NCBI GenBank assembly: GCA_028698185.1
Contig: JAQVDW010000001.1
Location: 150,001 to 182,000 of the forward strand
Direction: 5' to 3'
Length of the DNA stretch: 32,000 nucleotides
From: Erysipelotrichaceae bacterium
Lineage (GTDB): Bacteria > Bacillota_I > Bacilli_A > Erysipelotrichales > Coprobacillaceae
Of this stretch, positions 2,796 through 24,823 are shown in pieces (positions within the stretch are counted from its first letter, which is position 1; each line of letters starts with the position of its first letter). The position numbers and the translations under genes were made by a program. Under the pieces are notes generated by a model. It did not search any database, was not told the DNA's origin, and was given only the letters and a program-made list of their open reading frames with translations.

Positions 2796-2828
2796 AAAAC
2801 TCAACCCCGACTGTCATTCAGGGTTGAG
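2796..2828 (-). terminator. Rho-independent terminator ending the SipW operon
   Basis: An 8-bp stem CTCAACCC/GGGTTGAG (2800-2807 and 2821-2828) is followed by TTTT on the minus strand. It overlaps the sipW stop codon. Confidence 0.6.
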
Positions 2829-3315
2829 TAGGCATTTTTTCTTGGTCTTTCCGGTACATATCTGCCAGGTAGCTAAGCAGTATCATCAAAGCCACCACGG
2901 ATCCCAGGATGATCTTGCCATTGAAACTGATTGCGAACACCGCCACATATCCCAGGTATGGGATTGTGAACATTGGCACCCCGACAATATTGTCATATGC
3001 CACCTTGGAACCATCGGCAGTATTGTTGGCATCGCCCTTGGTCGTGTAGAGCATCGCCTGCTGGTCCACCTCTATCACTCGGTGGGTTACCAGAGCTGAA
3101 CTGGATATCTGGAAGGTGATGGGATCGCCAACTTCTATCGTATCGAAATTCTTGTTTACGAAAACCAGACTACCCACATGGTAGGTTGGCTCCATCGAGC
3201 CCGACAGCACCACATAAGGGCTGATTCCGACGATTCTAGGAACATACAGCAATGCCATGAACGCAACTACAATGACTATGATTGCATTGGTTAAGTAATG
3301 GATTAGTTTTACCAT
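2818..3315 (-). CDS. sipW: Signal peptidase I, SipW (ER/archaeal) type
   Basis: The protein has an N-terminal TM segment followed by LSGSMEPTYHVGSLVFV...VTHRV...TKGDANNTADG and a C-terminal TM segment. This is the S26B SipW-like pattern. The ATG at 3315 shares 1 nt with the upstream gene's TGA stop, which suggests translational coupling. The track's extra M is a TTG codon. Confidence 0.85.
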   Translation of the reverse strand: MVKLIHYLTNAIIVIVVAFMALLYVPRIVGISPYVVLSGSMEPTYHVGSLVFVNKNFDTIEVGDPITFQISSSALVTHRVIEVDQQAMLYTTKGDANNTADGSKVAYDNIVGVPMFTIPYLGYVAVFAISFNGKIILGSVVALMILLSYLADMYRKDQEKMPTQP

Positions 3316-4190
3316 CAACGGTTACCACGTTTTTTCTTGAATACAAGCAACCAGAGCACGGTCGCTGCCGCCAACGCAGCTGCAACTGCAGCCGCTGTGA
3401 TTGTGGTTGTATTCCAGAAGCCCGGTGTCAATGGCACATCATCGTCATCGATTATTATTCCACCATCGTCATCGATTATTATTCCACCATCGTCATCGGT
3501 TCCGGTCCCGTCATCATCGGTTGTTGTCCCATCATCGGTTGTTGTCCCATCATCGGTTGTTGTCCCATCATCATCGGTTGTTGTTCCACCACCGGGAGTA
3601 ACAACAGTGATTTGATTTCCAGTGCCCGGTACAACAACTACTGAAGTTGTCACACCACCGGAACTTGAACCACCACCCCCTGACGTGCTAGTAAGGGTCG
3701 AGGTGTAATGGAAGCTGATTTGAACACCATCCTGGCTTATTGTTGCGGTTTTAACCGCGGCATCGACTGCGTAATCCTGGATTTCCAAGGCCAGTACGCT
3801 TACCGGAGCATTAAGATTGGTTGTCTTGACAACCGACGTTGCCAGAGGTTTGTCATTTTCATCAAGATAGTTTATCTGGTATGTTACCGAATCGATAATC
3901 TTGCGGTACTGTGCGACAAAGGTGTCTTCCCTGGTCACTGTTTCAGGCACATCAAGGTAAAACCCGGTAAAGAAATAACCTTCGTTCACATCGATGGCCG
4001 CCTGGATCAGATCCGGATCCAAAGTTGTCCCATATTCCAGATTGAGAACAACCCGGTCCTGGGAAGCGATGCTTCCCTGACTACCGGTCTTGAACGTTAT
4101 ATCGTAACTACGCAATGCATTGGCTGGCAACAGGGTAAAGAACATCATCACGACGATGCCAATCATCACTTTCAATGATCTACTTTTCAT
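3315..4190 (-). CDS. Surface adhesin-like protein (P3) with, in order, a signal peptide, a Listeria-Bacteroides-type repeat, a MucBP-like domain, a Thr/Asp/Gly-rich repeat stalk and a C-terminal TM anchor with a basic tail
   Basis: Supporting motifs are YDITFKTGSQGSI...GYFFTGFY...TFVAQY (List-Bact repeat pattern) and VTYQINYLDENDKPL...ISFHY (MucBP-like). The stalk carries (DDGTTT)n and (DDDGGIII)2 repeats. The tail is PLTPGFWNTTTITAAAVAAALAAATVLWLLVFKKKRGNR. I prefer the ATG at 4190, which follows RBS AAGGGGTG and overlaps the upstream stop by 11 nt. The track's start at 4199 is a GTG. Confidence 0.6.
   Translation of the reverse strand: MKSRSLKVMIGIVVMMFFTLLPANALRSYDITFKTGSQGSIASQDRVVLNLEYGTTLDPDLIQAAIDVNEGYFFTGFYLDVPETVTREDTFVAQYRKIIDSVTYQINYLDENDKPLATSVVKTTNLNAPVSVLALEIQDYAVDAAVKTATISQDGVQISFHYTSTLTSTSGGGGSSSGGVTTSVVVVPGTGNQITVVTPGGGTTTDDDGTTTDDGTTTDDGTTTDDDGTGTDDDGGIIIDDDGGIIIDDDDVPLTPGFWNTTTITAAAVAAALAAATVLWLLVFKKKRGNR
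3441..3590. repeat. In-frame tandem DNA repeats inside the P3 stalk
   Basis: A 24-bp unit atcgtcatcgattattattccacc occurs twice exactly (3441-3464 and 3465-3488) plus a partial third copy. An 18-bp unit catcatcggttgttgtcc occurs three times exactly (3512-3565), and a fourth copy carries a 3-nt insertion. Confidence 0.9.
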
Positions 4191-4806
4191 GTTTACCACC
4201 CCTTTTGTATAGTATCAGCACTAATCCCGCTGCCACGATCAAGCCACCATAGACAAGCGGTGAAACCGATTCGTCGCCGGTTTTGACAATCTTTGGCAAA
4301 GGCTGCTCGACTGAGAATATGAAATTGACTACCCCGGTTTGCCCTTGATATTCGTTGTTGGCCGAATCCCCGTCCAGTGAAAGGGTGACATTGATTGTCT
4401 TTGATGCGCCGGCATTCAAAGTCCCCAACAGGATGTTGTTGTCATTGGTCAGAAACTGCAACCCGATGGTCACTTCATCATTTCCGACTTCGGTTTCAAA
4501 AAACGGTGTTGTCCCATCGGCGATGGTGAATGTGTACACCGCATCCCCGTCACCTTTGTTTGCGATATTGTCGAGAATCTCGCTTGACATATAGAAACGC
4601 ATCTGTCCGCCACTGCCATTTACCAGATTGAAAGTGACTGTTCTTGATTCACCTGGAAGCATGTTTTCGAAATCCGGGGCATTACCGTCAAGCATTATGA
4701 ATCTGTTGGCATCACCTTGATAGGTGATCACATCCGCTGCAGCCACATTGTTCATTGACAGAAAAGCTACAAGAGTGATGGCCAAACCAATTATCAGTTT
4801 TTTCAT
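4180..4806 (-). CDS. Secreted cell-surface protein (P2) with TasA/camelysin-like beta-sandwich motifs and an LPXTG-like C-terminal sorting signal
   Basis: The signal peptide ends VAA/AD. Motifs MLPGESRTVTFNLVNGSG and NEYQGQTGVVNFIFSVEQ resemble TasA-family strands. The C-terminus is PLPKIVKTGDESVSPLVYGGLIVAAGLVLILYKRGGKHEK. The ATG at 4806 has better spacing from AGAGGG than the ATG at 4812. Confidence 0.5.
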   Translation of the reverse strand: MKKLIIGLAITLVAFLSMNNVAAADVITYQGDANRFIMLDGNAPDFENMLPGESRTVTFNLVNGSGGQMRFYMSSEILDNIANKGDGDAVYTFTIADGTTPFFETEVGNDEVTIGLQFLTNDNNILLGTLNAGASKTINVTLSLDGDSANNEYQGQTGVVNFIFSVEQPLPKIVKTGDESVSPLVYGGLIVAAGLVLILYKRGGKHEK

Positions 4807-4821
4807 TTTCATCCCTCTTTT

Positions 4822-5466
4822 CTACAATCCGATTGAAACAATGTTATCATCGGCGTCAAATTCAACATCAACGCCCCACTCAGCCTTGAAAGAATCCTTG
4901 GCGTCAAAGGTCTGAACACCATAACCAAAGAACTCGAGATGGACGATCTTGTCAGCGTAAAGATTGTTGTTTTGGGTCACATCCAGATATGTGTACGAAT
5001 CGATGACCGTTGCATACTCCCCTGGATCAAGTGGTCTGGTGTAGTACGCATAGGTGACTTCGGAATACTCATCACCTTCGAAAACAAGCCAGCCGTTCGC
5101 TACAGTGAATTGGATTTGGGCAGGATCGAGGTAATTTGGGTCATTCTGATCGGTTGTGTTTTTGGTCCCGTCTTCATCGGCCCAGTAGCGGTAAATCGTC
5201 ACCCTGACGTAGGCTGTCGTATTTTCGGTGTTTTTGATCGCCAGTCCGCCATCGATGACGTCACCCGGCATTCCATACACTTCACTTTCCAAGAAATTGT
5301 CAGTTATCGTGCTACCGTCACCATTGACAAAGTCTATGCCAAGATATGGGGTGTAGATAGCCTTCTGGGTTTCAAAACTGCTTTGAATGACACTGTAAGT
5401 GCCATGAACGCTAAAACCAACTACTCCTAGTATGAATATCATTCCTATTATTATCTTCTTGTTCAT
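4822..5466 (-). CDS. TasA/camelysin-family secreted protein (P1), first gene of the SipW operon
   Basis: An N-terminal hydrophobic signal is followed by GTYSVIQSSFETQ. The body has MPGDVIDGGLAIKNTENTTAYVRV and a C-terminal FFGYGVQT motif shared with the other paralogues. The ATG at 5466 follows RBS AGAGGTGA. The track's start at 5475 is a GTG. Confidence 0.6.
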   Translation of the reverse strand: MNKKIIIGMIFILGVVGFSVHGTYSVIQSSFETQKAIYTPYLGIDFVNGDGSTITDNFLESEVYGMPGDVIDGGLAIKNTENTTAYVRVTIYRYWADEDGTKNTTDQNDPNYLDPAQIQFTVANGWLVFEGDEYSEVTYAYYTRPLDPGEYATVIDSYTYLDVTQNNNLYADKIVHLEFFGYGVQTFDAKDSFKAEWGVDVEFDADDNIVSIGL

Positions 5467-5490
5467 ATTTATCACCTCTATATCACTTGT

Positions 5491-5523
5491 ATTTTAACTT
5501 GAGCCAGTCACATGTCAGTCACA
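5491..5523 (-). promoter_or_regulatory. Candidate activator-dependent promoter A with 11-bp-periodic direct repeats plus a -10
   Basis: The minus strand reads TGTGAC-tgaca-TGTGAC-tggctcaagt-TAAAAT. On the plus strand, gtcaca lies at 5507-5512 and 5518-5523, and the -10 at 5491-5496. No -35 hexamer is present. Sites at 11596-11628 and 24824-24856 have identical architecture. Confidence 0.7.
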
Positions 5524-5564
5524 TCTTTATCAATTATTGTTTTAAAGGAAGTGAATTGTTACCC

Positions 5565-5593
5565 TTTATAAAAACCTGGAAATCTTGTATAAT
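5565..5593 (+). promoter_or_regulatory. Putative sigma-A promoter of the plus-strand transglutaminase / type IV filament-like operon
   Basis: TTTATA (5565-5570), a 17-nt spacer and TATAAT (5588-5593) lie about 75 nt upstream of the ATG at 5667. Confidence 0.45.
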
Positions 5594-5666
5594 TACCATA
5601 TGTGAGCAAACCGCAATTGAAACTCCGATTTTGGAGCTTTGCTCAACGACAAGAGGTGATATCCAG

Positions 5667-6587
5667 ATGAAATTCAAATCCCTGATCATCGCAGCCATGC
5701 TTTTAAGCGGATGTGGTACCAAAACCCAGACAACATCCCCTTTGAATCTCGCTCCCTCCTCCAATAAAGCTACCTTGAAAAGCGAGCCGGTTTTCTATCT
5801 TGCCAGCTTCAATGAAGGAAAAACCCAAGGCAACGAAGCGGTGGAAATCGACCTGACCAATGTCGTCAAAGGTTATTTTGGAGTGAAATACAATGGAACC
5901 AACGACAGGCCCAAACTCCAGCTTACACTGCCTTCAGGGGCCATCTACACATACAACCTGACCGGAAAAATCGACTTTTTCAATCTGGTCGAGACATCGG
6001 GCACGTATGTGATCACGGTCTATGAAAATATCGAAGGCAACCGCTATGGCAAGATATTCAAGACCAGCTTTGAAGTTGAGCAGGAAAACGGATTCAATGC
6101 CTTCTTGTACAACAACCAGTATGTCAATTTCGACAAGGACACCCAGGTTGCATATGTTGCCAGCGAGCTGGTCACAAATGCGTCTTCATCCCTTGAAAAG
6201 ATCCAGCTGATCTTCGATTACATTATTACCAACTACGATTATGACTATCAAAAGGCTAAAATTGTCGCTTACGATTATATTCCGGATCTAAACTCTATCT
6301 ACCAATCCAAAAAAGGGATATGCTTCGATTACGCGGCATTGCTTGTTGCGATGCTGCGCACCCAGGCCATCCCGACCCGGCTGGAATTCGGATATGTCAA
6401 AGACACATATCATGCCTGGGTCAGTGTCTATACGGATCAGACCGGTTGGATCGACAATTTCATCTATTTTGAAAACGAGAACTGGCAAATCATGGATCCC
6501 ACCTTCATCTCGCAAGACCCAGGCAACAAGAAAATCCAGGAATTCACGACCGACAGCGAAAATTATGAGCTGAAATACATCTTTTAA
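5667..6587 (+). CDS. Lipoprotein with a transglutaminase-like (Cys-His-Asp) core domain
   Basis: The ATG at 5667 follows RBS AAGAGGTGA. The signal is MKFKSLIIAAMLLSGC, with lipobox LSGC. The catalytic-core pattern is KKGICFDYAALLVAMLRTQAIPTRLEFGYV...YHAWVSVY...WQIMDPT. I judge the track's upstream extension from 5487 to be non-coding. Confidence 0.8.
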   Translation: MKFKSLIIAAMLLSGCGTKTQTTSPLNLAPSSNKATLKSEPVFYLASFNEGKTQGNEAVEIDLTNVVKGYFGVKYNGTNDRPKLQLTLPSGAIYTYNLTGKIDFFNLVETSGTYVITVYENIEGNRYGKIFKTSFEVEQENGFNAFLYNNQYVNFDKDTQVAYVASELVTNASSSLEKIQLIFDYIITNYDYDYQKAKIVAYDYIPDLNSIYQSKKGICFDYAALLVAMLRTQAIPTRLEFGYVKDTYHAWVSVYTDQTGWIDNFIYFENENWQIMDPTFISQDPGNKKIQEFTTDSENYELKYIF

Positions 6588-6598
6588 TGGAGGCGGCA

Positions 6599-7531
6599 AT
6601 GAGAAACGATTACGATCTAATCATCAATTTTTCAAAGCAGATGTATCTGATTTCCACCAGTGGCCAAAGTTTCTTGGCGGGACTTAGATTGCTTGAAACC
6701 AACACCACGCAAATGCGGATGAAAAATCTTTTGACCCAGGTTATCGCCCAGCTCGAACAAAATGACATCATTTTTGCCCTGGAAAGCACCGGGCTGTTTG
6801 ACGAGCTTTATCTTGACCTGATCAAAGCCGGCCTGCATTCTGGAAATCTTGACGAAGTATTTCTTCACCTGACAAACTATTACAAGCAACTTGATCAAAG
6901 CAACAGGAAATTAAGAAGGCTGTTGAATTTCCCCATCGGCATGAGCCTGGTCATGATGGTGATCATGATTATACTGGTGACCAGGATTCTCCCGGTATTC
7001 AGCGACCTTTATGCAGGCATGGGAGCCCAGCTGACCGGTGTTGCCAGGATAAGCCTTCAGCTGGGATACTTCATCAATGATTACCTCGTTTACTTCATCA
7101 TCATTGTGCTATCTGGTGTGCTTTTGTTGCTGGGAATGATCCGGCAAGACAAGGTTGGGATCTTCAAAAAGGCAAAGGCTCTCAATCGGGCATCCAATGA
7201 GCTTTTTGCCGTTTCCACCCTGGTAAAGGCCGGAGTTTCTTTCGATCAGGCAGCTGGAATAGCCAACATGTCCAAATCGGGCGTGATCGAGGCGTTTTCT
7301 TCCCGGCTCGAGCCTCTTGAGCTGTCCTTGTTGGAAATGAGCATCCAGAACGGAACCCATGAAAAGGTTATCGAGATGCTTTTCGACGAGTATCGCCAGA
7401 AGGCCAATACAAGGATGGATGAATCATTGGCCAAGTTCGAACTATACTTTGGCACCGGTTTTGTCGTCATTGTAGCCATCGTCATGCTGTCATTGATCTT
7501 GCCGCTTTTCGCGATTCTTTCAGAATTATGA
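6599..7531 (+). CDS. Type II secretion / type IV pilus platform protein (GspF/PilC/ComGB family)
   Basis: There are two T2SSF-like repeats (LIKAGLHSGNLDEVF; LVKAGVSFDQAAG) separated by TM segments (LPVFSDLYAGMGAQL). It is about 310 aa, close to ComGB in size. The ATG at 6599 follows a GGAGG. Confidence 0.8.
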   Translation: MRNDYDLIINFSKQMYLISTSGQSFLAGLRLLETNTTQMRMKNLLTQVIAQLEQNDIIFALESTGLFDELYLDLIKAGLHSGNLDEVFLHLTNYYKQLDQSNRKLRRLLNFPIGMSLVMMVIMIILVTRILPVFSDLYAGMGAQLTGVARISLQLGYFINDYLVYFIIIVLSGVLLLLGMIRQDKVGIFKKAKALNRASNELFAVSTLVKAGVSFDQAAGIANMSKSGVIEAFSSRLEPLELSLLEMSIQNGTHEKVIEMLFDEYRQKANTRMDESLAKFELYFGTGFVVIVAIVMLSLILPLFAILSEL

Positions 7532-7812
7532 AGATAGTAAGATTAGCGCTGGTTATTGTTGCATTGGCCCTGGGAATCATCTTTATCAATCAGTTCCACC
7601 AGACCAGCCAGGAAAACGCTTTGCATGCACTCGAGCAGTCGATCAATGACAAAATACTGCTTTGTTACATCAATGAGGGGCGTTATCCCGAATCACTGGG
7701 ATATCTTGAGGAAAATTACGGCCTAAGCTTCGATAAGACAAGATATCAGGTTTTTTTGATCCCGATTGGAGAAAACATCATACCTGACTTGACGGTATTC
7801 GCCTATGAATAA
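7528..7812 (+). CDS. Small pilin/pseudopilin-like protein (94 aa) without a canonical prepilin cleavage motif
   Basis: The start overlaps the upstream stop (ATGA). An N-terminal hydrophobic helix MKIVRLALVIVALALGIIFI continues into a GspG/ComGC-like YINEGRYPESLGYL segment. There is no G(-1) and no E(+5). Confidence 0.45.
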   Translation: MKIVRLALVIVALALGIIFINQFHQTSQENALHALEQSINDKILLCYINEGRYPESLGYLEENYGLSFDKTRYQVFLIPIGENIIPDLTVFAYE

Positions 7813-8221
7813 AAGCAACTTGTTTTCATACCTCATTACCGGCATCTTCATCTTCACCCTTAGCGCCATCTGCATCCTTATGCTAAACATCACAAACAAG
7901 ACAGCCATAGCCCAAGATGCCCTTGTAGATGAGCAGTTTGTGATCAGCTTCATAAACGAAAAGATCAAGCGGGCCAAATCGGTTGAAATAAAAAAAGATG
8001 ATACCTCGGACATTCTTGCACTCGAAGATGGTTCTTCATATGTGACCTACCTGTACAACAACGATGGTTACCTATGCGAGCTTTATGTGCCGGCCGGCCG
8101 GGAATTCGATATGGAATATGGGGACCGGATATGTTCCATGGAAAAACTGGACATGGATCTCATTGATGGCCTGCTTGTAATCAACGAAAACTACTACTTG
8201 AACCTGGAGGGCAAGCCGTGA
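7805..8221 (+). CDS. Small bitopic protein (138 aa), ComGF-like minor pseudopilin candidate
   Basis: The start overlaps the upstream stop by 8 nt. It has an N-terminal TM segment (LFSYLITGIFIFTLSAICILML). Its size and layout resemble ComGF-family proteins. This is based on similarity of pattern only. Confidence 0.35.
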   Translation: MNKSNLFSYLITGIFIFTLSAICILMLNITNKTAIAQDALVDEQFVISFINEKIKRAKSVEIKKDDTSDILALEDGSSYVTYLYNNDGYLCELYVPAGREFDMEYGDRICSMEKLDMDLIDGLLVINENYYLNLEGKP

Positions 8222-8586
8222 AAGATAAGATAAGCATGCTCGAGCTATGTGTCAACCTTATGGTTTTCGCAATCGCCCTGGCGCTGGTCATCCAGATCAT
8301 GATGAAAACAACTCTCATCAATTACCACAACACGATCAAGGCCAAAGCAATCATCCAGCTCAACAGTATTGTCGCAATCCTGCAAGAACATCAAGGCGAT
8401 CTTGAAGGTTACTACCAAACCAGTGATTCGCTAATCCTTTTTGACAGCAACAATATAAACACCACGGACGATTATTATTATTGCGTAAAAGTTGAAAACA
8501 ATTTCCCGATATTCCATCTTGATGTTTACGATAAATATGACAACCTGATCATCGCGACTGACTACGAGGTGGCTTATGAAGATTAG
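8218..8586 (+). CDS. Small pilin-like protein (122 aa) with a degenerate class III signal
   Basis: The GTG start overlaps the upstream TGA (GTGA). The N-terminus MKDK/ISMLELCVNLMVFAIALALV places Glu at +5 relative to a putative cleavage site, but Lys rather than Gly sits at -1. Confidence 0.4.
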   Translation: MKDKISMLELCVNLMVFAIALALVIQIMMKTTLINYHNTIKAKAIIQLNSIVAILQEHQGDLEGYYQTSDSLILFDSNNINTTDDYYYCVKVENNFPIFHLDVYDKYDNLIIATDYEVAYED

Positions 8587-8962
8587 AATCGGGCTGACAA
8601 GCCTTTTCAATATCATCATCATCCTGGTATTGATCACATTGACATTCAACTCATACATCCAGACCAAGGCCAGCCAAACCCTGATTGACCAGAACCTCGC
8701 CCACAACCTCACCTACCTTGAGGCCAGGTCGATAATCAACCGTTTCATCAACGACAGCCGGGAAATTCCGTTGACGAATCTTCAGGACCAATACGATTTT
8801 CAAATGGAAGCAAATGTGATAACTTTCCAGGAGGTCATTGACTATGGCCAGACAGTCACATTGGTTTACGATTATAATGCCAAGCAAATCATCTCCTTGC
8901 AGGTCCAAAACAATTCGGATTACCAGCTAGATGACTTGGCTCCAGTCTACACAGGAGAATGA
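8576..8962 (+). CDS. Small pilin-like protein (128 aa), ComGG-like candidate
   Basis: The N-terminus MKIRIG/LTSLFNIIIILVLITL has Gly at -1 but no Glu at +5, as in ComGG/GspK-type minor pilins. It overlaps the upstream gene by 11 nt. Confidence 0.4.
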   Translation: MKIRIGLTSLFNIIIILVLITLTFNSYIQTKASQTLIDQNLAHNLTYLEARSIINRFINDSREIPLTNLQDQYDFQMEANVITFQEVIDYGQTVTLVYDYNAKQIISLQVQNNSDYQLDDLAPVYTGE

Positions 8963-8963
8963 T

Positions 8964-10016
8964 ATGGAAATTACTTCAATTCTGCACCGGGCAATAACCA
9001 TGCAGGCTTCGGATATCTTTATCGAAGCCAACATCCCAGTCAAGTTCAAGAAAGACAATCAACTGTGCCCCTTGAACAATGATGTACTCACCACCGAAGA
9101 CACCAAACAGCTTATCAGCCAGATTTACGAAATCGCCAAGCGCGATGTCGATATCCTCTTCAATGACGGCGATGACGATTTCGCCTTCTCGATAGCCCAC
9201 CTTTCCCGCTTCCGGGTGAGCATGTTCAAACAGCGGGGCTCACTGGCTTGCGTGATCCGGATCATCGCCTTCAAGCTGCCGGATTTCCAGGAATTGAACA
9301 TTCCCGAACAGCTGATTGATCTAGGCGACCAGACCAACGGGCTGATCCTTTTCACCGGTCCTTCAGGAAGCGGCAAATCCACGACCCTGGCATGCATCAT
9401 CGACTACATCAACCACAAATATGCCCGTCATGTCATCACTCTTGAAGACCCTATCGAGTATCTTCATGTCCACAACAAATCGATAATCACCCAGCGGGAG
9501 ATCGGCAATGACACCAACTGTTATCTGACCGCCCTGAGGGCCAGCCTGCGCCAGTGTCCCGATGTCATCCTGCTTGGGGAGATGCGCGACCATGAAACTA
9601 TCGAGACTGCGATAACCGCAAGCGAGACCGGCCACCTGGTGTTTTCCACACTCCATACAATCGGCGCAAGCAATACAATCAACCGGATCATCGATGCCTT
9701 TCCAGCCAATGAGCAGCCACAGATAGCGATGATGCTCTCACTGACCCTCAATGCGGTCGTGTCGCAGCATCTCGTTCCCGATATTTCCGGTAAGCTCATT
9801 CCGGTGTTTGAAATCATGATTGTCAATCCGGCCATCCGCAACCTGATAAGAGAAAAAAAGATCCACCAGATCGACTCGATCATTGAAAGCGACCGGCAAA
9901 ACATGGTGACCCTTGACAACAGTCTGCTGCAACTTTACCAGGACCGTATCATATCCAGGGAAACAGTGATCAAGTACTGCAAGAACAACCAATATATCAC
10001 CCAGAAATTGGGATAG
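8964..10016 (+). CDS. pilT: PilT/PilU-family type IV pilus (retraction-type) hexameric ATPase
   Basis: The ATG at 8964 follows AGGAGA and lies 1 nt after the upstream stop. Motifs read by eye are ASDIFIE, Walker A GPSGSGKSTTL, ITLEDPIEY, PDVILLGEMRDHETIETAITASETGHLVFSTLHT, INRIIDAFPANEQPQI and NPAIRNLIREKKIHQI. This set is diagnostic of PilT rather than PilB/GspE/ComGA. Confidence 0.85.
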   Translation: MEITSILHRAITMQASDIFIEANIPVKFKKDNQLCPLNNDVLTTEDTKQLISQIYEIAKRDVDILFNDGDDDFAFSIAHLSRFRVSMFKQRGSLACVIRIIAFKLPDFQELNIPEQLIDLGDQTNGLILFTGPSGSGKSTTLACIIDYINHKYARHVITLEDPIEYLHVHNKSIITQREIGNDTNCYLTALRASLRQCPDVILLGEMRDHETIETAITASETGHLVFSTLHTIGASNTINRIIDAFPANEQPQIAMMLSLTLNAVVSQHLVPDISGKLIPVFEIMIVNPAIRNLIREKKIHQIDSIIESDRQNMVTLDNSLLQLYQDRIISRETVIKYCKNNQYITQKLG

Positions 10017-10062
10017 AAAAAAGGCATGTTGTGTTAACACTATCCGTTAACGAACATGCCTT
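10015..10062 (-). terminator. Terminator hairpin between two convergent genes (the pilT-like gene and P4)
   Basis: The stem AAGGCATGTT/AACATGCCTT spans 10021-10030 and 10053-10062. A T-run follows only in the minus-strand sense, so it is an efficient terminator for P4 and possibly a weaker one for the plus-strand operon. Confidence 0.6.
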
Positions 10063-10074
10063 CATGCTGTCATA

Positions 10075-10725
10075 TTAAGAATATTGTTCGATTGCCGCTG
10101 CAGGCCAACCAGTGATCATGCCACCTGGGTTGGTTGTAGGTGTCACATTAGCTGCTTGAATCGCTTCAGCCTTTACAGTTATTATGTAATCATCGTTTGT
10201 GCTGCTGTTGGTCAAGCTGCTTGGGAATGATACTGTAGAGAATACAGTTACGTTTGCGCCAGCTGCCAAAGAGTTCTTATAATACACATATGCACTTTCT
10301 GAACCATCAGGATTACTTGTCAAACCACCGATAAACCAATCACTTGTGTTGATATTTAAATAACTCAACAAAGTAGCTTCAGAGATGACCCCATCGCCTC
10401 CGGTATCTATCGTCTTAAGAGTAACCAGTGCGCGGACATAACAATCTTCAGATCCAGCCATTACTGTAATTACAGGCTGTTTGGAATAGACATCGCCAGG
10501 CATTACATCATTGTAATCGTAACCGTCATCAGTAGCCGTACCAGCCTTAACGCCAGGTCCTGCAACTGAAGTTTCTCTTAAATCGATGTCAACATGTCCC
10601 ATTGTGATTGTGTTGGTTTCAGTTTTGGTGTAGTCAGTGAAGTATGCCAGCGTGAATCCGACAGTGGCACTGAGTGCAATCGCTGCTGTAGTGACAATTG
10701 CAGCAATTTTCTTGTTCAATTTCAT
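10075..10725 (-). CDS. TasA/camelysin-family protein (P4) with a SipW-dependent-type signal peptide
   Basis: The signal GFTLAYFTDYTKTETNTITMGHVDIDL matches the TasA-type signal (compare B. subtilis TasA GGGTWAAFNDIKSKDATFASGTLDL). The body has MPGDVYSKQPVITVMAGSEDCYVRALV and a C-terminal KAEAIQAANV. Confidence 0.8.
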   Translation of the reverse strand: MKLNKKIAAIVTTAAIALSATVGFTLAYFTDYTKTETNTITMGHVDIDLRETSVAGPGVKAGTATDDGYDYNDVMPGDVYSKQPVITVMAGSEDCYVRALVTLKTIDTGGDGVISEATLLSYLNINTSDWFIGGLTSNPDGSESAYVYYKNSLAAGANVTVFSTVSFPSSLTNSSTNDDYIITVKAEAIQAANVTPTTNPGGMITGWPAAAIEQYS

Positions 10726-10780
10726 AATATTTTCTCCTTTTTTAATTATGTTTAGTGATCGTTGAATTAATCAATTAATA

Positions 10781-11464
10781 TCAAGGCGCTGGGTATCCGG
10801 CAAGGGTTTTCAAAGCTGTTGCCTTGTCAGTTCCAGCTGGCAATGATATTTGAACACCATAAGCAGTTGCATCTATTTCCAATTTTGGTAAGTTACCTGA
10901 ACCATCAGGAACCAATCCGAAGGAAATCAACACTTGGGTGAACAATGGTGATGTCGTTGCTTGAGCTGAATCGGCTACAAGATAAGAATTGAAAACAAAG
11001 AAATCATTGTTTGCAGGTACTGTCGATTCATTAGACCATTCGTCTACTGCCGCTCCAGTGTCAAATACGATGCTGTCATCTCGAAGATATGTCGCAAATG
11101 TTGCATAAGGAACTACAACATCGTTAACCTTGTAGGTCAACTTCATTGCCACGTAGGTGTTGTCGCTTCCGGTCATGGCTTTGATGGTCGGATCTTTAGG
11201 CACAGTATCTCCTGGCAAGTACTCATTGGCTATGTTGTAACCAAGGGTTACATCATCTGATTTAGGTGATGTACCGCCCGGCCAAGCTTCTGAAAAATCG
11301 TATCCATCCCATGCCGGTTCTCTTAACTCAATGTCGATTCCCCGTGATGATGTAAAAACGTTTGTTGCCGATGATGTGGTATCAGTCAAAAGAGCCATAG
11401 TCAATGACAGGGTAAGACCAAAAACCAATGCAAAAATCATTAAATACTTTGTGAATTTCTTCAT
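10781..11464 (-). CDS. TasA/camelysin-family protein (P5) with a SipW-dependent-type signal peptide
   Basis: Supporting motifs are MALLTDTTSSATNVFTSSRGIDIELREPAWDGYDF, LPGDTVPKDPTIKAMTGSDNTYVAMKL and C-terminal ATAYGVQ. It is a clear paralogue of P6 (23417-24118). Confidence 0.8.
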   Translation of the reverse strand: MKKFTKYLMIFALVFGLTLSLTMALLTDTTSSATNVFTSSRGIDIELREPAWDGYDFSEAWPGGTSPKSDDVTLGYNIANEYLPGDTVPKDPTIKAMTGSDNTYVAMKLTYKVNDVVVPYATFATYLRDDSIVFDTGAAVDEWSNESTVPANNDFFVFNSYLVADSAQATTSPLFTQVLISFGLVPDGSGNLPKLEIDATAYGVQISLPAGTDKATALKTLAGYPAP

Positions 11465-11643: not shown

Positions 11644-11673
11644 AAAAAAACTTGGCTCAGTTAGACCCAAGTT
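11644..11673 (-). terminator. Rho-independent terminator of the regulator gene
   Basis: The stem ACTTGG/CCAAGT, which includes the last codons of the CDS, is followed by T7 on the minus strand. Confidence 0.6.
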
Positions 11674-12856
11674 TTTGACTGTTGCAAGTTATGTAGATGT
11701 CGTTTTTTTTCAGACCGCGGTAAAAATATTTCTCGATTCTCTCGATAACCAAGGTTGCATCGTCAATATTGCACATGCTAAGAAGACAGCTGTACTGATT
11801 GGGCGAGACCTTGGAAACCGAATCGCTGTTGCGCAGTGCATCAATCAAAACATCTTCAACACGGTCCATTCCCCTATTCAAGGTATCCCGGAAGATCTTG
11901 GAATGGCCGTCAAACGGTTTCATCACATTAACCGAGACCAGAAGCAAAGTCGAATCGAACGAGTGTCTTTGCGCCAGCCGAAGCTCAAGATTGCATAGGT
12001 TTTTAAATGCACCGTAATCACAGACAAGGACGTTCTTTGATTGCAGTGGAACAATGTCCTGCTGGACCTTGTCAATCGATTCATTGGCCGGCAGAAACCG
12101 GCTCAAGATCTGCTCATAAGTCTTGATCAGCTTATCACTCGGCAAAACCCCAAGCTCATGATTTAGAATATATTTGGCTGTCTCATATTTGACCCGGGCA
12201 AGTTCAAACTCGTTATTTTGACCAAGGGCTAGGATTTCATAACGGTAAAAATCCTCTTCCGTATTGTCAAGCGACAAAGCGTTGTTAGAATAGAAATAGA
12301 GGTCATCGTAAAACTTCTGGTTGTAAAGCACCTTCAGAAAATCTTTTGTCATTTTCAAAAAAACATTGTGATAATACATCGAATTCTGCATTATTAACGA
12401 ATCGTAATCAAAATGGGCAAACAGACGGTCCTGATAAATTTCTGTCGCTTTTTTATAATGGTCGATCTTGGTCAGATCATCCATTTTGTCGTCAACTGAA
12501 CTTATCAGTGCATAAAACTCCTCAAAATCGACGATCAGCTTGACCTGTGAATTCCAGAAATATGTTCCCGACCCGGTCATTATCAGTTCCTGATCAGGCC
12601 ACACCTGCTTCATGACTGTCCGCAAACGGTAGACCAGGTTTTTAAGTGCCCCAATCGGATTGGAACTCTCATCATCTTCCCAAAGGTAATCGCACAAATC
12701 CGATAACGGGATGATGGTATTATGATGGGTAATAAAATAAAAAAGCAGTTTGGCCAGGCGCTTCGACTTGAGCATTGTCAGGTTGAGCTGGCCGACGTCG
12801 TTACTGATCTGGAATTCACCAAAGGCATAGACGTTCAAAACACAAGAATATTCCAT
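11657..12856 (-). CDS. SARP-like transcriptional activator (OmpR-type winged helix plus BTAD/TPR-like domain) with a C-terminal degenerate GGDEF-like domain
   Basis: The N-terminus VYAFGEFQISNDVGQLNL...KRLAKLLFYFITHHNTIIPLSDLCDYLWEDDESSNPIGALKNLVYRLRTVM fits the SARP/EmbR-type wHTH pattern. The middle region is helical and BTAD-like (ARVKYETAKYILNHELGVLPSDKLIKTYEQIL). The C-terminus LRNSDSVSKVSPNQYSCLLSMCNIDDATLVIERIEKYF aligns to R-x-x-D-(5 aa)-GGDEF-vvll...A..iAErIr of GGDEF domains. Confidence 0.65.
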   Translation of the reverse strand: MEYSCVLNVYAFGEFQISNDVGQLNLTMLKSKRLAKLLFYFITHHNTIIPLSDLCDYLWEDDESSNPIGALKNLVYRLRTVMKQVWPDQELIMTGSGTYFWNSQVKLIVDFEEFYALISSVDDKMDDLTKIDHYKKATEIYQDRLFAHFDYDSLIMQNSMYYHNVFLKMTKDFLKVLYNQKFYDDLYFYSNNALSLDNTEEDFYRYEILALGQNNEFELARVKYETAKYILNHELGVLPSDKLIKTYEQILSRFLPANESIDKVQQDIVPLQSKNVLVCDYGAFKNLCNLELRLAQRHSFDSTLLLVSVNVMKPFDGHSKIFRDTLNRGMDRVEDVLIDALRNSDSVSKVSPNQYSCLLSMCNIDDATLVIERIEKYFYRGLKKNDIYITCNSQKLGSN

Positions 12857-13059: not shown

Positions 13060-15288
13060 CTAGTGGATAATCCTTTTGACATCGTATATGCCGATGATTT
13101 TTTCAAGGTTGACAAAGGCGATCTGCAGGGAATCGTTGTCTTCGACTGCGAGCTTGAGCTGAATAAAAGCCTCCGCATCCTGGGTTTCGGCGTTTATTTT
13201 CAAGATGGAAATCTTGCTTTGTCCCAGTACGTTGATAATCTCATTGAGAAGATTGCCCCGGTCAAGACCGCGGATTTCGATATCGACGTCAAACTTGTGG
13301 TTGAAAGTCTGCGCATTGTCCCAGTACACAGGAATCAGCCGCTTTTTGATCTCCGGATTCTGGACATTGGGACAGCTGGCCCGGTGAACCTTTATCCCCT
13401 GCCCTTTGGACACGAAACCGACGATATCATCGCCAGGTATCGGGTTGCAGCATCTTGAGAGTGTGATCTTGATTCCGTCGATTCCCTCAACGACAACCCC
13501 GGTTTTGGAAACGTTGGCTTTGGCCTGATTCGCCGCCAGGTTGCTGTTGCGCTGGAGCATCTTCGAAATGTTGTCGATCAGGCCGCCGCGTTTTGGATTT
13601 ATCTTGTCGATGACCGACATCGGCAGCAGCGTCTTCTTGCCGATGAAAAACAGGATGTCTTCGAAGCTCTTGGCACCGAAGGCCCCAAGATAAGTCTTGT
13701 ATGTCTCCTCATTGAGATATTTGGTCTCGTCGAGTTTTCTCTTGCGAACCTCGTCCTTGAAGATTTTCCGGCCCGCTTCCACCATTTCCTTGCGGCTTTG
13801 GGCTTCGACCTTGGTAATGTACTGGCGGATCTTGTTCCTTGCACCGGTGGTCCGGACGAACTTCAACCAGTCGCGGTTGGGTGTGGCGTTCTTGCTTGTC
13901 TTGATTTCGACCACATCGCCGGTTTTGAGCTTTGTGTTAATCGGCACCATGACATTGTTGACAACGGCACCCACACAGGTATTTCCGACTTCCGAGTGGA
14001 TCCGGTAGGCAAAGTCGATTGGCGTCGACCCGTTGGGAAGCTCGATGATTTTCCCCTTGGGGCTCAAGACATAGACATTCGCCTCGAAGATGTCCCGCTT
14101 CAAACTGTCGTAGAATTCCTTGGCATCACGGTCCTTGATATCGTCGGACAGAGTGATGAAATCGCGGAGCCATTGGAGCTTTTCACCGATCTCCTGCTGT
14201 TCCTTTTGCGACGAATAGCCCCGGTTTTCCTTGTAGCGCCAGTGGGCCGCAACCCCGAGTTCCGCCAGTTCGTCCATCAGTTCGGTCCTTATCTGGATTT
14301 CATAAGTATGGCCGTCATCACCGATGATCGATGTATGCAATGACTGGTACATGTTTGGCTTGGGCATCGCGATGTAATCCTTGAACCGGCCGGGAATCGG
14401 GCGATAATGTTCGTGAATCAGACCGAGAATTGTATAGCATGACTGCTTGTTGTCGGTGATGACCCGCAAGGCATAGAGATCATAAATCTCATCGAATCGC
14501 TTGTTCTTGATGAACATCTTCTTGTAGATGCTGTAGATCGACTTTGGCCGGCCGACAATCCGGTATGTGATCTTATGGGTGTCAAGGAGATCGGATACAT
14601 CATGGATCATCTTGTCGATATAGCCCCTGCGCTGTTCCTCTTTTTCCTTGAGCAACAAGACGATATCATTGTAGGCTATCGGATCGAGATAAGACAGCGA
14701 AAGGTTTTCTAATTCCGTCTTGATGTCCGAAAGCCCGAGCCTATGGGCAATCGGGGTGTAGACCTCAAGTGTCTCGCGGGCGATTTTCTTTTGCTTTTGG
14801 GGCTTCATGAACTGCAGGGTCCTCATATTGTGAAGCCGGTCGGCAAACTTGATCAAAATGACCCGGATGTCGCTGGCCATGGCGATGTAGATCTTGCGGT
14901 GGTTTTCCGCATAAACCTCATCCTCATCCTTGAAATCCATCTTGTTGATCTTGGTGACCCCTTCGACCAGGGTCGTCACCTCGTCACCGAAGCGTTCGAC
15001 CATTTCCGGCCGGGGCACATCGCAGTCTTCCATGACATCATGCAACAAGCCCGCCGCAATCGTCTTAGGACCGGTCTGCAATGTCGCCAAGATGTAGGCG
15101 ACCCAAAGCAAGTGGTTGGTATACGGCTCACCGCTGCGCCGTTTCTGGTCGGCGTGTTTGATCATGATAAATTCATAGGCCCGATTGATCAAATCGAGAT
15201 CTTCCGGGTTGGTAACATAATTTTTTACTACATCAACGATATCCTGGAACGCCACTACTTCATGGGCCCCTTTACCACCTTTAAACAT
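13060..15288 (-). CDS. relA: Bifunctional (p)ppGpp synthetase/hydrolase RelA/SpoT (Rel)
   Basis: The 742-aa ORF has an HD hydrolase domain (HLLWVA...LHDVMED), a synthetase domain (YRSLHT-like SLHTSIIG), and TGS and ACT regions. It follows apt and recJ, as in Bacillus. Confidence 0.95.
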   Translation of the reverse strand: MFKGGKGAHEVVAFQDIVDVVKNYVTNPEDLDLINRAYEFIMIKHADQKRRSGEPYTNHLLWVAYILATLQTGPKTIAAGLLHDVMEDCDVPRPEMVERFGDEVTTLVEGVTKINKMDFKDEDEVYAENHRKIYIAMASDIRVILIKFADRLHNMRTLQFMKPQKQKKIARETLEVYTPIAHRLGLSDIKTELENLSLSYLDPIAYNDIVLLLKEKEEQRRGYIDKMIHDVSDLLDTHKITYRIVGRPKSIYSIYKKMFIKNKRFDEIYDLYALRVITDNKQSCYTILGLIHEHYRPIPGRFKDYIAMPKPNMYQSLHTSIIGDDGHTYEIQIRTELMDELAELGVAAHWRYKENRGYSSQKEQQEIGEKLQWLRDFITLSDDIKDRDAKEFYDSLKRDIFEANVYVLSPKGKIIELPNGSTPIDFAYRIHSEVGNTCVGAVVNNVMVPINTKLKTGDVVEIKTSKNATPNRDWLKFVRTTGARNKIRQYITKVEAQSRKEMVEAGRKIFKDEVRKRKLDETKYLNEETYKTYLGAFGAKSFEDILFFIGKKTLLPMSVIDKINPKRGGLIDNISKMLQRNSNLAANQAKANVSKTGVVVEGIDGIKITLSRCCNPIPGDDIVGFVSKGQGIKVHRASCPNVQNPEIKKRLIPVYWDNAQTFNHKFDVDIEIRGLDRGNLLNEIINVLGQSKISILKINAETQDAEAFIQLKLAVEDNDSLQIAFVNLEKIIGIYDVKRIIH

Positions 15289-15320
15289 ACTCCGACCTCC
15301 TTTTTCAAATTTTATTGATT

Positions 15321-15839
15321 CTAATATTTCAACAACGACATGACGTTGTATCCTTCGAGATGTCTGATTCCTTCAAGGGCCTCAAGCTCGATCACAAATG
15401 CGATCCCGACAACTTTGCCACCCAATTCTTCAACCAGCTTGATGGTCGCCTCGATCGTACCGCCAGTTGCCAGCAAATCATCAACGATAACCACGTTTTG
15501 ACCCGGTTTGATGGCATCATAGTGCATATGAACCTCATTGCTGCCATACTCCAGATCGTATCGGTATGAAATAGTTTCGCGGGGCAGTTTGCCTGGCTTG
15601 CGCACTGGAACGAATCCAGCTCCGATTTCATAGGCCACCGGACAACCGAAAATGAATCCGCGGGATTCAGGTCCGACTACGACATCCACCTTGTCCCCCA
15701 ATGTGTTGGTCCAGTCGACAAAACGGGTAATGGCGTATTGGAATGCCGCCCCATCTTGCAACAATGGTGTGATATCGCGGAAAAGGATACCTTCTTCCGG
15801 GAAATCCGGGATTGTCGCAATGTATTTTTCTAAGTTCAT
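15321..15839 (-). CDS. apt: Adenine phosphoribosyltransferase
   Basis: The 172-aa ORF has the PRPP-binding motif [13 protein letters not shown]. It lies in recJ-apt-relA synteny. Confidence 0.93.
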
Positions 15840-15883
15840 GTATGTTCCTCCATATTTTCATTTTAACATTGATTTTTGAATAA

Positions 15884-17506
15884 TTAAATACCTTTTATGC
15901 CACTAAGGTGGACGTTGATGCTTTTTTTGTTTCTAAATTCATTGATTGTCAATTTACCTGCGAAACTGATCGAATTCAGGCTGCTAAGCTGACTGACAAG
16001 ATGACCGTGATTGAAAAACAGACAGTCGATCGTCCCCGCCTTGAACTTGAGATGTTGTCCGTTGGAAAGAGTGACCAGATTGGTGAAAGCGATATTTTCA
16101 AAATAGAAATCGACATTTTCGAACCCCGGACCAAACGGTTCGAGTTTTTCAAGATCGAGAATATTCTCGATTGTAAGCTCCTGGCTGGTGACCTTGATGA
16201 CATCCTTGACAGGTGCGCTGAACTGTTCTTCTTTGATGAACTGTTCCAGTCTTAGCCGGAACTCTTTTAGATTCTCCTGTTTCAACGAGAATCCCCCGGC
16301 GAGATCATGGCCGCCATAATGGTCAAGCAAATCGTCGCAATAACCAAATGCCTTGGTGATGTTGATTCCCGCCACCGACCGGGCCGATCCCTTGAACAGT
16401 TGCGACTGTTCATCGTAAGTCATGACGAAACTTGGCTGGTTGTAGGTGTTGGTATAGCGGGAAGCTATCAGACCGCTGATGCCCTGGTGCAGTTTTTTGC
16501 TGGCAAAAAACAGGAATTCACCTTCATTGGCTTTGGTCATGATCTGTTCGTAGTAGCGTTGGGTCATCTCTTTGCGTTTGGCGTTCACGTCCTTAATCTG
16601 ACCCGCCAGTTCAACGTTGTAGCTTTGGCTTTCAAGCAGGGCGAAATAACGGACAAGCTTGTTTGGTGAAATGATTTCCGGCAGACGGCCCAGGGCGTTT
16701 ATCTTGGGAATCACCTGGAAGTTGAGCAATGTCGGGTTGATCGGATTGTTGTTGTCTTTCAACAAGGCAATCGTTTGATAATTGTTCGCATTCATGAACT
16801 CGATCGCTTTTTTTACCAGGGCCCGGTTTTCATCGATAATGGGCATGACATCCGAAAGGATCGTGATCCCTGCCAGGGAAAACAGGTAAGGATCGTGTTT
16901 TTTCAACAAGGCGCTGGCCAGCTTGTAGGCCGTGAAGCCGCCGCTGATTTCCTTGAAAGGATAGTGATACGACGTCTTGGGATGGATGATGCTCATCGCC
17001 TCGGGCTGGGTTTGCCCAACTTCATGGTGGTCGGTGATGATCACATCAACTCCCAGTTCGTTGGCCTTTTCGATGGCGGCGAACGCCTGGATGCCGTTGT
17101 CAACAGTGATGATCAGGCTGTACCCCTTAGCGTGGATCTGTTCCACCCGGTTGCAAGTCAGACCGTAGCCGTCAAAAAAACGGTTGGGAATGTGGAAACC
17201 GACCTCTACGCCCAGCTGCTTGAAGGCATTGACCAGAATCGAGGTCCCCAGGATGCCATCGCTGTCATAGTCGCCATAAATGCATATCTTTTCCTCGTTT
17301 CCTATCGCCTCGAAAATCCGCTCCAGGGCCATTTCCCCTTCGTCAAACAGTTCGAAACTGTGATATTTGAGCCGGGTCGACATGAGATCCTGGTATCTTG
17401 CCTGGTCGACCTGGTGATACGCCAGCATCTTGGCAACCAGCGGGCTTACCTTGAATTCCTGGATATAATTCTGATATATATCGCTATCATAAATTTTAAA
17501 TTCCAT
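15884..17506 (-). CDS. recJ: Single-stranded-DNA-specific exonuclease RecJ (DHH/DHHA1)
   Basis: DHH motifs are present (IYGDYDSDG, ITVDNG, IITDHH), together with the DHHA1 motif GGHDLAGGFS. Confidence 0.9.
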   Translation of the reverse strand: MEFKIYDSDIYQNYIQEFKVSPLVAKMLAYHQVDQARYQDLMSTRLKYHSFELFDEGEMALERIFEAIGNEEKICIYGDYDSDGILGTSILVNAFKQLGVEVGFHIPNRFFDGYGLTCNRVEQIHAKGYSLIITVDNGIQAFAAIEKANELGVDVIITDHHEVGQTQPEAMSIIHPKTSYHYPFKEISGGFTAYKLASALLKKHDPYLFSLAGITILSDVMPIIDENRALVKKAIEFMNANNYQTIALLKDNNNPINPTLLNFQVIPKINALGRLPEIISPNKLVRYFALLESQSYNVELAGQIKDVNAKRKEMTQRYYEQIMTKANEGEFLFFASKKLHQGISGLIASRYTNTYNQPSFVMTYDEQSQLFKGSARSVAGINITKAFGYCDDLLDHYGGHDLAGGFSLKQENLKEFRLRLEQFIKEEQFSAPVKDVIKVTSQELTIENILDLEKLEPFGPGFENVDFYFENIAFTNLVTLSNGQHLKFKAGTIDCLFFNHGHLVSQLSSLNSISFAGKLTINEFRNKKSINVHLSGIKGI

Positions 17507-23382: not shown

Positions 23383-23416
23383 ATGTAGCTATTCTCCTTT
23401 CTATGATTTTGAAATC

Positions 23417-24118: not shown

Positions 24119-24160
24119 TATTATCACCTTACCTCTTTTGCAATATAAGTTGATTGATCA

Positions 24161-24763: not shown

Positions 24764-24823
24764 ATATACCACCTTTATTCTGTTAGCTATTTTCATACAA
24801 ATATCACTATTCTATTCATTCAA

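Follow-up and report, generated by a model that had tools for sequence, protein, structure and literature searches.

How large folded or polymerising proteins pass through the thick Gram-positive cell wall is an open question. In comG competence systems, which belong to the type IV filaments (T4F, also written TFF), the peptidase gene comC is encoded elsewhere and one of the small pilin-type proteins, ComGG, lacks the glutamate at position 5 (Glu5). In known systems, PilT opposes an assembly ATPase of the PilB type. The sole experimental hint on passage through the wall so far comes from Clostridium perfringens and its canonical, unlinked type IV pili (T4P). There, efficient secretion of the TasA-like protein BsaA needs several T4P proteins, and secretion of the VWA protein BsaC needs PilA3, PilB2, PilC1, PilD and PilMNO; bsaA and bsaC sit in one sipW-tasA-like operon and the authors read the system as Gram-positive type II secretion-like (Kivimaki et al., bioRxiv 10.1101/2024.11.04.621531). 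Here we describe a seven-gene operon in a stretch of 32,000 nucleotides (nt) from an Erysipelotrichaceae bacterium of the Coprobacillaceae (assembly GCA_028698185.1, contig JAQVDW010000001.1, positions 150,001 to 182,000; hereafter the window, numbered from its first letter). The operon very probably represents a functional, distinct and previously undescribed T4F variant of monoderm Firmicutes.

The genes were assigned from a listing of open reading frames (ORFs) and from Pfam and NCBIfam profile searches of the window. Between 5667 and 10016, seven co-directional and translationally coupled genes were found on the plus strand in the order TG-F-s1-s2-s3-s4-ATPase, where TG is the gene of a transglutaminase-like lipoprotein, F that of the platform, and s1 to s4 are four small proteins, each with one N-terminal transmembrane (TM) segment. 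The features of this unit are the following (aa, amino acids).

5565-5593, plus strand: promoter-like site TTTATA-17-TATAAT (10/12 matches; a consensus match alone)
5667-6587, plus strand: transglutaminase-like lipoprotein, 306 aa (Transglut_core 8.8e-21, DUF553 3.4e-10, lipobox LSGC)
6587-7531, plus strand: platform protein of the PilC/GspF/ComGB type, 314 aa (T2SSF 6.7e-18, two T2SSF stretches)
7528-7812, plus strand: s1, 94 aa, single TM segment (no family match)
7805-8221, plus strand: s2, 138 aa, single TM segment (DUF4860, PF16152, 3.3e-14)
8218-8586, plus strand: s3, 122 aa, type IV pilin-like, single TM segment (no curated family match; Glu hallmark)
8576-8962, plus strand: s4, 128 aa, single TM segment (no family match; Gly before the hydrophobic helix)
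8964-10016, plus strand: PilT-family hexameric ATPase, 350 aa (T2SSE 1.3e-47, TIGR01420 409.6 bits)
10021-10062, strand-neutral: hairpin (-21 kcal/mol, z = -5.1)

Adjacent genes overlap by 1 nt (TG/F), 4 nt (F/s1), 8 nt (s1/s2), 4 nt (s2/s3) and 11 nt (s3/s4), and s4 and the ATPase gene are separated by a single nucleotide when the ATG at 8964 is taken as the ATPase start. The longest ATPase ORF begins at the ATG at 8931 and would give 361 aa. The ATG at 8964 has an AGGAG ribosome-binding site ahead of it, agrees with the gene call in a related locus (L007) and is most likely the true start; good ribosome-binding sites also precede s3 and s4. The original prediction, made from the letters of the window, had described this tight coupling, the leading transglutaminase-like lipoprotein and the ATPase in last place, all of which were borne out. 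Its gene list was also complete, but it had counted six genes where the list itself sums to seven. The ends given for the unit, 5565 and 10062, coincide with the promoter-like site, which lies in the divergent intergenic region 5476-5666, and with the hairpin. The latter is placed between the convergent ATPase and TasA-like genes and is probably a bidirectional terminator.

The operon is a widespread and conserved operon family in gut Firmicutes. In a metagenome scan with an s1 alignment, 420 relatives were confirmed, and 80 loci were kept and mapped by hidden Markov models (HMMs). Essentially every kept locus with enough sequence shows the order TG-F-s1-s2-(s3)-s4-ATPase, and at least 38 dereplicated lineages carry the operon. 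Among the 27 lineages whose downstream sequence was long enough, 26 have the ATPase at the end. The impression of a one-genome oddity given by the original prediction was therefore wrong. Hosts are Roseburia sp./R. amylophila, Ca. Metalachnospira, Ca. Bariatricus and other Lachnospiraceae, Oscillospiraceae, Ca. Limiplasma and Coprobacillaceae. In one locus (L069, 7728-8663), the TG gene is inverted; the remaining operon is intact there and is followed by the gene of a BTAD-type regulator.

A full HMMER search with s2 returned 190 representative clusters of DUF4860 proteins. Two typical members are encoded in the same seven-gene operon of a high-GC clostridial lineage, with 272 aa for the transglutaminase-like protein, 351 aa for the platform, 98-109, 165, 121-132 and 148 aa for the small proteins and 352 aa for the ATPase. 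When a genome collection was scanned with a narrower DUF4860 alignment, two Coprobacillaceae genomes were found. Word-seeded searches gave almost nothing for s2 and five close relatives of the platform (five clusters among 5.8 billion), so that the system had looked rarer than it is. One platform homologue with 64% identity (P0003) is labelled in NCBI as stemming from a metagenome-assembled genome of an 'Alphaproteobacteria bacterium'; all other relatives are Firmicutes, and the label is probably a binning or taxonomy error. Existing annotation of the operon is piecemeal ('PilT', 'type II secretion system F family protein', 'DUF4860'), the Roseburia ATPase cluster holds 451 member sequences seen on at least 1000 contigs, and a literature search found no paper on DUF4860 (PF16152) or on this operon.

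Selection and synteny both indicate that the genes have been kept. The ratio of nonsynonymous to synonymous substitution rates (dN/dS) between the window and L007 was 0.06-0.20 for all seven genes, and the seven ORFs are intact, with no internal stops, in every relative examined. The whole island is retained between hisS and relA in relatives with 53-100% platform identity, and it occupies this position also in a second Coprobacillaceae chromosome with an s2 identity of only 33%. The original prediction had spoken of an insertion. The island is old and vertically kept, and a recent insertion was rejected because the synteny is conserved across the family. It had also allowed for a degenerate remnant. 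Degenerate class III signals in the window lineage and a platform about 40 residues shorter than its clostridial homologues could be taken as signs of decay. Against this, purifying selection acts on all seven genes, the catalytic motifs are intact, and ribosome-binding sites and start/stop overlaps are preserved, which makes a functionless remnant hardly credible.

The ATPase is a true PilT-family member, as had been claimed, rather than a PilB/GspE/ComGA-family protein. It scored 409.6 bits against TIGR01420 (pilT_fam, cutoff 319), with profile positions 2-341 of 343 covered, compared to 149 bits against the ComGA equivalog NF041000 (cutoff 300), 120-133 bits against the GspE/PilB models and 34 bits against the Tad-type TIGR03819 (cutoff 373). 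Among solved structures, PilT gave 265-309 bits (Aquifex 309, Geobacter 298-305), PilU 247, DotB 121 and GspE/PilB about 87 bits. In addition to this full-length match, the protein shares with PilT and PilU the Walker A (GPSGSGKST) and Walker B (DVILLGEMRD) motifs, the His box (TGHLVFSTLHT), an intact Asp box and the AIRNLIRE motif; the tetracysteine motif and an N-terminal extension (N1 domain) are absent. The difference from PilT and PilU lies in its setting. Here the protein is the sole secretion ATPase of the operon and is encoded together with a platform and pilins. An HMM scan that covered every window ORF from 45 aa upwards, together with 94 related loci and their flanks of up to 10 kb, detected no second T2SSE ATPase. 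No PilT-only class is described in the TFF classification paper.

A PilT-type motor without a local partner could mean that the operon serves as an accessory module to a canonical T4P whose genes lie elsewhere, adding a PilT, an alternative platform and minor pilins and depending on an unlinked PilB and PilD. The full PilT-family character of the ATPase, including AIRNLIRE, would suit this role, as would the frequent separation of pilT from pilB in known systems, the lack of a peptidase or assembly ATPase found locally, and one lineage (L057/L085) whose operon has no ATPase gene. However, the operon brings its own platform and has a fixed seven-gene order ending in the ATPase, and the window ATPase reaches 355-435 bits with its counterparts in the operons of other lineages, compared to at most 309 bits with solved PilT proteins. 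Moreover, systems in which one ATPase both extends and retracts are known; the Tad ATPase CpaF provides this precedent. We therefore regard the accessory module as improbable. As the operon ATPases are closer to each other than to any solved PilT, this comparison, which is one of bit scores and not a phylogeny, suggests that they form a dedicated orthologous group.

The platform stayed far under the cutoffs of all equivalog models (GspF 79, PilC 62 and the ComGB model NF041012 53 bits, the ComGB cutoff being 240). With a T2SSE-superfamily ATPase and a platform of the PilC/GspF/TadB family, the operon has two of the components expected of a T4F. In outline it resembles comG, which is likewise a compact monoderm T4F operon with one ATPase and a short platform of about 314-350 aa; its small pilin-type proteins number four to five, and its peptidase is unlinked. 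Weak matches to ComGE and ComGG (E 0.016-0.07) were also obtained with some s3 orthologues. Nevertheless, a divergent ComG-like pseudopilus for DNA uptake, one of the two readings offered by the original prediction, is very improbable. The ComGA and ComGB scores are far below their cutoffs, no ComG pilin model was reached and no ComGC-like major pilin was found. Furthermore, ComGA comes first in comG, whereas here the PilT-family ATPase comes last and the transglutaminase-like gene leads, and the genes conserved next to the operon are those of fibres, sortases and BTAD regulators and not comE/comF.

Other described loci did not fit either. A type IVa pilus set (PilB, PilM/N/O and a PilA-type major pilin) was not found by Pfam and NCBIfam in the operon or its flanks. 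Tad/Flp loci offer a precedent for one ATPase in both extension and retraction, but the operon ATPase is not of the TadA/CpaF type, a single platform gene is present instead of TadB and TadC, and no Flp-like pilin is encoded in the operon. The operon is thus neither a comG, nor a T4aP, nor a Tad locus. A spoIIIA-like sporulation channel was rejected on its gene content, since the operon has a true PilT as ATPase and a platform that matches T2SSF.

By its family-wide sequence hallmarks, s3 appears to be a type IV pilin. Typical orthologues have N-termini ending in SRSG, GSG or SS, followed by LFLLELMIVILFF, LFLLELMISIAFF and LFLMELIISILFF, respectively, and the sole invariant column across 21 lineages is a Glu, which stands five positions behind a small residue that is Gly in many cases. 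In hhalign comparisons, the Gly-1/Glu5 pattern of s3 was in register with that of E. coli GspH (P 6e-4), GspJ (4e-4) and GspG (3e-3), compared to P values of 0.06-0.7 for the controls GspL, GspM and GspC, and several s3 orthologues showed sub-threshold matches to the PilV, GspH, PpdD, ComGE and ComGG models. In the window, s3 begins with MKDK followed by ISMLELCVNLMVF (starting MKDK-ISMLELC), a degenerate class III signal with Ser, not Gly, at -1. None of s1-s4 passed a curated pilin model.

The N-terminus of s4 (MKIRIG-LTSLFNIII) has a basic leader and no Glu5, and the Gly directly before the hydrophobic helix is invariant in 27/27 lineages. With Gly at -1 and Glu5 absent, s4 shows a pattern like that of minor pilins of the GspK/ComGG type; hhalign found no significant match between s4 and the E. 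coli pseudopilins. The original prediction had noted that no protein has a canonical (K/R)G-FTLxE signal. This holds for the strict motif in the window, but the degenerate hallmarks, the Glu of s3 and the Gly of s4, are both invariant in the family. The set s1-s4 is thus taken to include one genuine pilin or more, and with it a partner of the class III-like kind.

For s2, the AlphaFold2 (AF2) model has an N-terminal helix of 53 residues and, after it, a beta sheet (pLDDT 82, pTM 0.65), so that a pilin-like 'lollipop' topology is predicted with fair confidence; a Foldseek search of this model against the PDB gave no significant match. The N-terminus of s1 is basic, and its exposed domain (CYxxEGxYP..YL..NYG...N..PD..V) is strongly conserved, with 12 invariant columns in 28 lineages. 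The protein has no Pfam, NCBIfam or PDB match, and seven of its orthologues likewise lack a Pfam match, but its profile resembles that of s3 (hhalign, probability 78%). Nothing was found when the s1 and s2 sequence profiles were compared with the PDB, and an AF2 model of s1 made without an alignment was poor (pLDDT 57) and was not used.

Some other assignments of the small proteins were tried and dropped. s1 as a GspG/ComGC-type major pseudopilin was rejected, as hhalign aligned just an 'EGRYP'/'HHYPT' motif with GspG (probability 0.15). PilN/PilO-like alignment proteins were also rejected; the GspL and GspM controls were silent for s1-s3 and gave a weak match in the TM region of s4, and s2 is all-beta beyond its helix. 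GspC, a further control, did not match s1-s4 either.

The invariant Glu of s3 and Gly of s4 point to probable processing by an unlinked prepilin peptidase. Pfam and NCBIfam detected no A24 peptidase, no PilM/N/O and no second T2SSE ATPase in the operon, its immediate neighbours and the larger ORFs of 18-32 kb. A jackhmmer search seeded with E. coli GspO also found no A24 peptidase among the window ORFs of at least 45 aa and the 94 related loci with flanks of up to 10 kb. The absences of a prepilin peptidase and of PilM/N/O had been stated in the original prediction and were upheld. Known comG and MSH loci likewise lack a linked peptidase (TFF classification paper).

The leading gene encodes a lipoprotein in which the columns of a catalytic triad, Cys (GICFD), His (YHAW) and Asp, are conserved across 7 orthologues. 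It gave a weak match to 3ISR, a putative cysteine protease.

The genes around the operon point to surface fibres. The features in question are listed below; all are on the minus strand.

2818-5475, minus strand: fibre cassette of four genes, divergent from the operon
4822-5475, minus strand: TasA-like protein, 217 aa
4180-4812, minus strand: LPXTG-like anchor protein, 210 aa, with VKTGD, TM segment and basic tail (LPXTG_anchor 17.6 bits, cutoff 15.9)
3315-4199, minus strand: MucBP-like protein, 294 aa, C-terminal TM segment
2818-3318, minus strand: SipW-type signal peptidase (Peptidase_S26 1.9e-8)
10075-10725, minus strand: TasA/camelysin-like protein, 216 aa, SipW-type signal peptide
10781-11464, minus strand: TasA/camelysin-like protein, 227 aa, SipW-type signal peptide
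11657-12856, minus strand: BTAD/SARP-type transcriptional activator, 399 aa (BTAD 3.1e-9, Trans_reg_C 2.1e-5)
20803-24796, minus strand: second fibre cluster (two TasA-like proteins and a VWA protein)
24161-24796, minus strand: TasA-like protein, 211 aa
23417-24127, minus strand: TasA-like protein, 236 aa
20803-23382, minus strand: secreted VWA-domain protein, 859 aa

The operon indeed stands back-to-back with a SipW/TasA-like cassette, as had been described. The TasA/camelysin-like pair at 10075-11464 was assigned from Peptidase_M73 (1.1e-6) and TIGR04088 (cognate_SipW, 26.1 bits, cutoff 19), and jackhmmer tied it to the other TasA-like proteins of the window; a search of the 216-aa protein against the PDB gave nothing useful. 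The content of the cluster at 20803-24796 parallels bsaA-bsaB-bsaC of C. perfringens, and it has no SipW of its own. With SipW, five TasA-like proteins and a VWA protein, the window contains a BsaA-type fibre gene set. The BTAD/SARP activator likely regulates the island.

Some further observations were made on these genes. The Pfam matches of the BTAD/SARP regulator cover residues 32-251, and its C-terminal part of about 150 residues, which has no family match, could be a sensor domain. The 294-aa MucBP-like protein has low-complexity GTTTDD/GGIIIDDD repeats ahead of its C-terminal TM anchor, and these repeats give long spurious ORFs on the opposite strand. Anchors of the xTGD form occur as VKTGD in the window (4180-4812) and as PPTGD and IKTGD in two homologues (L011 6448-7080 and L024 5534-6292, respectively). 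No sortase was found within 10 kb of the Coprobacillaceae loci. In L008, a group II intron reverse transcriptase (RVT_1 and GIIM, 464 aa; 15174-16568) lies between the second TasA-like gene and the BTAD gene, so the island tolerates insertions at that spot.

When other lineages were examined, the operon again had surface-protein genes as neighbours. The four-gene cassette of the window recurs in Roseburia, in unchanged order and upstream on the operon strand, with SipW ending 11 nt before the TG gene, and is preceded by two class C sortases and a SpaA/DUF5979 protein. The cassette is thus linked to the operon in both Coprobacillaceae (divergent) and Roseburia (co-directional). In L091 and L019, a sortase gene lies directly upstream of the TG gene, either 12 nt away or overlapping, and L019 also encodes a protein of 1427 aa that contains a GBS104-like tip-pilin domain. 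In L012, the operon adjoins the genes of a class B sortase-C39 fusion and of a Cna_B protein (AQTGD anchor, 190-711). Downstream in L021, just past the BTAD gene, a protein with four SpaA domains is encoded; in L069, the BTAD gene stands beside the gene of a 1336-aa protein carrying Listeria-Bacteroides repeats. Altogether, four independent lineages encode a surface-protein processing enzyme just upstream of the TG gene and in the same orientation, and of the roughly 22 lineages having upstream sequence, 11 carry a BTAD homologue no more than 6 kb from the operon.

Taken together, the best explanation overall is that the operon is a T4F variant which forms a wall-spanning pseudopilus serving the linked fibres; we give this reading a probability of about 0.5. 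That the job of the operon is the export or display of these fibres, as the recurrent linkage and the analogy with C. perfringens suggest, we consider close to an even call. Of the two readings in the original prediction, the engine working with TasA-like fibres is hence the better supported, its support being the comparative context and the C. perfringens precedent. More tentative is the fully specified version, in which an unnamed T4F family with a bidirectional PilT as its sole motor would export SipW/TasA-BsaA and sortase fibres through such a pseudopilus, with the transglutaminase-like protein cross-linking or processing them.

Several points weigh against fibre export. In five of about 14 lineages with long flanks, the neighbours are housekeeping genes (L062, L064, L068 and L057) or housekeeping genes and two large proteins without Pfam match (L076), and surface-structure genes tend to cluster anyway. 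The operon could then build a type IV-like pilus that works autonomously, whether in adhesion, in motility or for another purpose, and that shares a 'surface-structure island' with the fibre genes and has no mechanistic tie to them. It is self-contained, with platform, ATPase and pilin-like proteins, PilT-family motors classically serve retractile pili, and the operon is complete in L062, L064 and L068, where it lies amid housekeeping genes alone, and in L076. However, SipW, two sortases and the SrtB-C39 fusion fill the slot upstream of the TG gene in the four independent lineages, and the cassette stays linked in Coprobacillaceae and Roseburia despite its inverted orientation. Chance operonic linkage would be hard to obtain given the few sortase and SipW genes per genome, which is an estimate and not a computed value. 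An autonomous pilus therefore seems unlikely to us. As the operon is found amid housekeeping genes in several lineages, its link with fibres is frequent, not obligatory.

The remaining points against fibre export concern the components themselves. Without Gly at -1 and with a leader of 4-6 residues, the window s3 may escape cleavage, and known pilins give no significant match to s1, s2 or s4 in either sequence or fold. The L057/L085 lineage has TG-F-s1-s2-s3-s4 without an ATPase gene (from about 11750); in L057, rpoC directly follows on the other strand, and the motor is either elsewhere or lost. In C. perfringens, finally, PilT was dispensable for secretion, whereas PilB2, PilD and PilMNO were required, which is the opposite of the motor found here (bioRxiv 10.1101/2024.11.04.621531).

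With the wall-spanning pseudopilus as the preferred reading, the machine could work as follows. A PilC-like membrane platform, driven by the single PilT-family hexameric ATPase, would assemble, and probably also retract, a short filament or pseudopilus. This filament would be built of the Glu5 pilin s3 and likely be capped or primed by s4 together with s1 and the pilin-shaped s2, and its subunits would be processed by a prepilin peptidase encoded elsewhere, as for comG/comC and the MSH loci. Outside the membrane, the transglutaminase-like lipoprotein, with its Cys-His-Asp triad intact, would act at the wall, where it may cross-link or process subunits or open the peptidoglycan. As a piston or scaffold, the pseudopilus would help Sec-exported fibre subunits and large adhesins through or onto the thick peptidoglycan, the substrates being processed by SipW in the window lineage and by sortase in other lineages. 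Such a dedicated 'Gram-positive type II secretion-like' engine may be co-regulated by the adjacent BTAD activator.

In concept, this resembles type II secretion, where a short pseudopilus acts as a piston for folded or polymerising exoproteins, and a likeness to GspG-K is also seen in the N-terminus of s3, in register with GspG, GspH and GspJ, and in s4, which lacks Glu5 like GspK. However, the operon has no secretin, GspE or GspC/L/M, the globular domains show no detectable similarity, and the barrier is peptidoglycan instead of the outer membrane. In comparison with C. perfringens, a T4F machine is in both cases implicated with SipW/TasA-like fibre products that cross peptidoglycan, here by gene linkage. 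While the C. perfringens machine is a canonical T4P unlinked to the fibre genes, the window operon is dedicated and linked to them. Its sole ATPase is a PilT, PilMNO and PilD are not encoded locally, a transglutaminase-like lipoprotein is added, and the small proteins are unrelated in sequence; every component differs beyond the superfamily level.

These results add a compact seven-gene system, physically linked to what are probably its substrates and carried by abundant human gut commensals that can be cultured, to the systems in which the passage of proteins through the Gram-positive wall can be studied. The textbook split between PilB for assembly and PilT for retraction is challenged, because PilT is the only motor in the operon. 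A testable function is offered for DUF4860 and for three unannotated protein families, and a transglutaminase-like enzyme is added to pilus biology. If the proposed role is true, the operon would give Gram-positive bacteria a dedicated counterpart of type II secretion, and it may bear on the gut adhesion of Lachnospiraceae and Erysipelotrichales.

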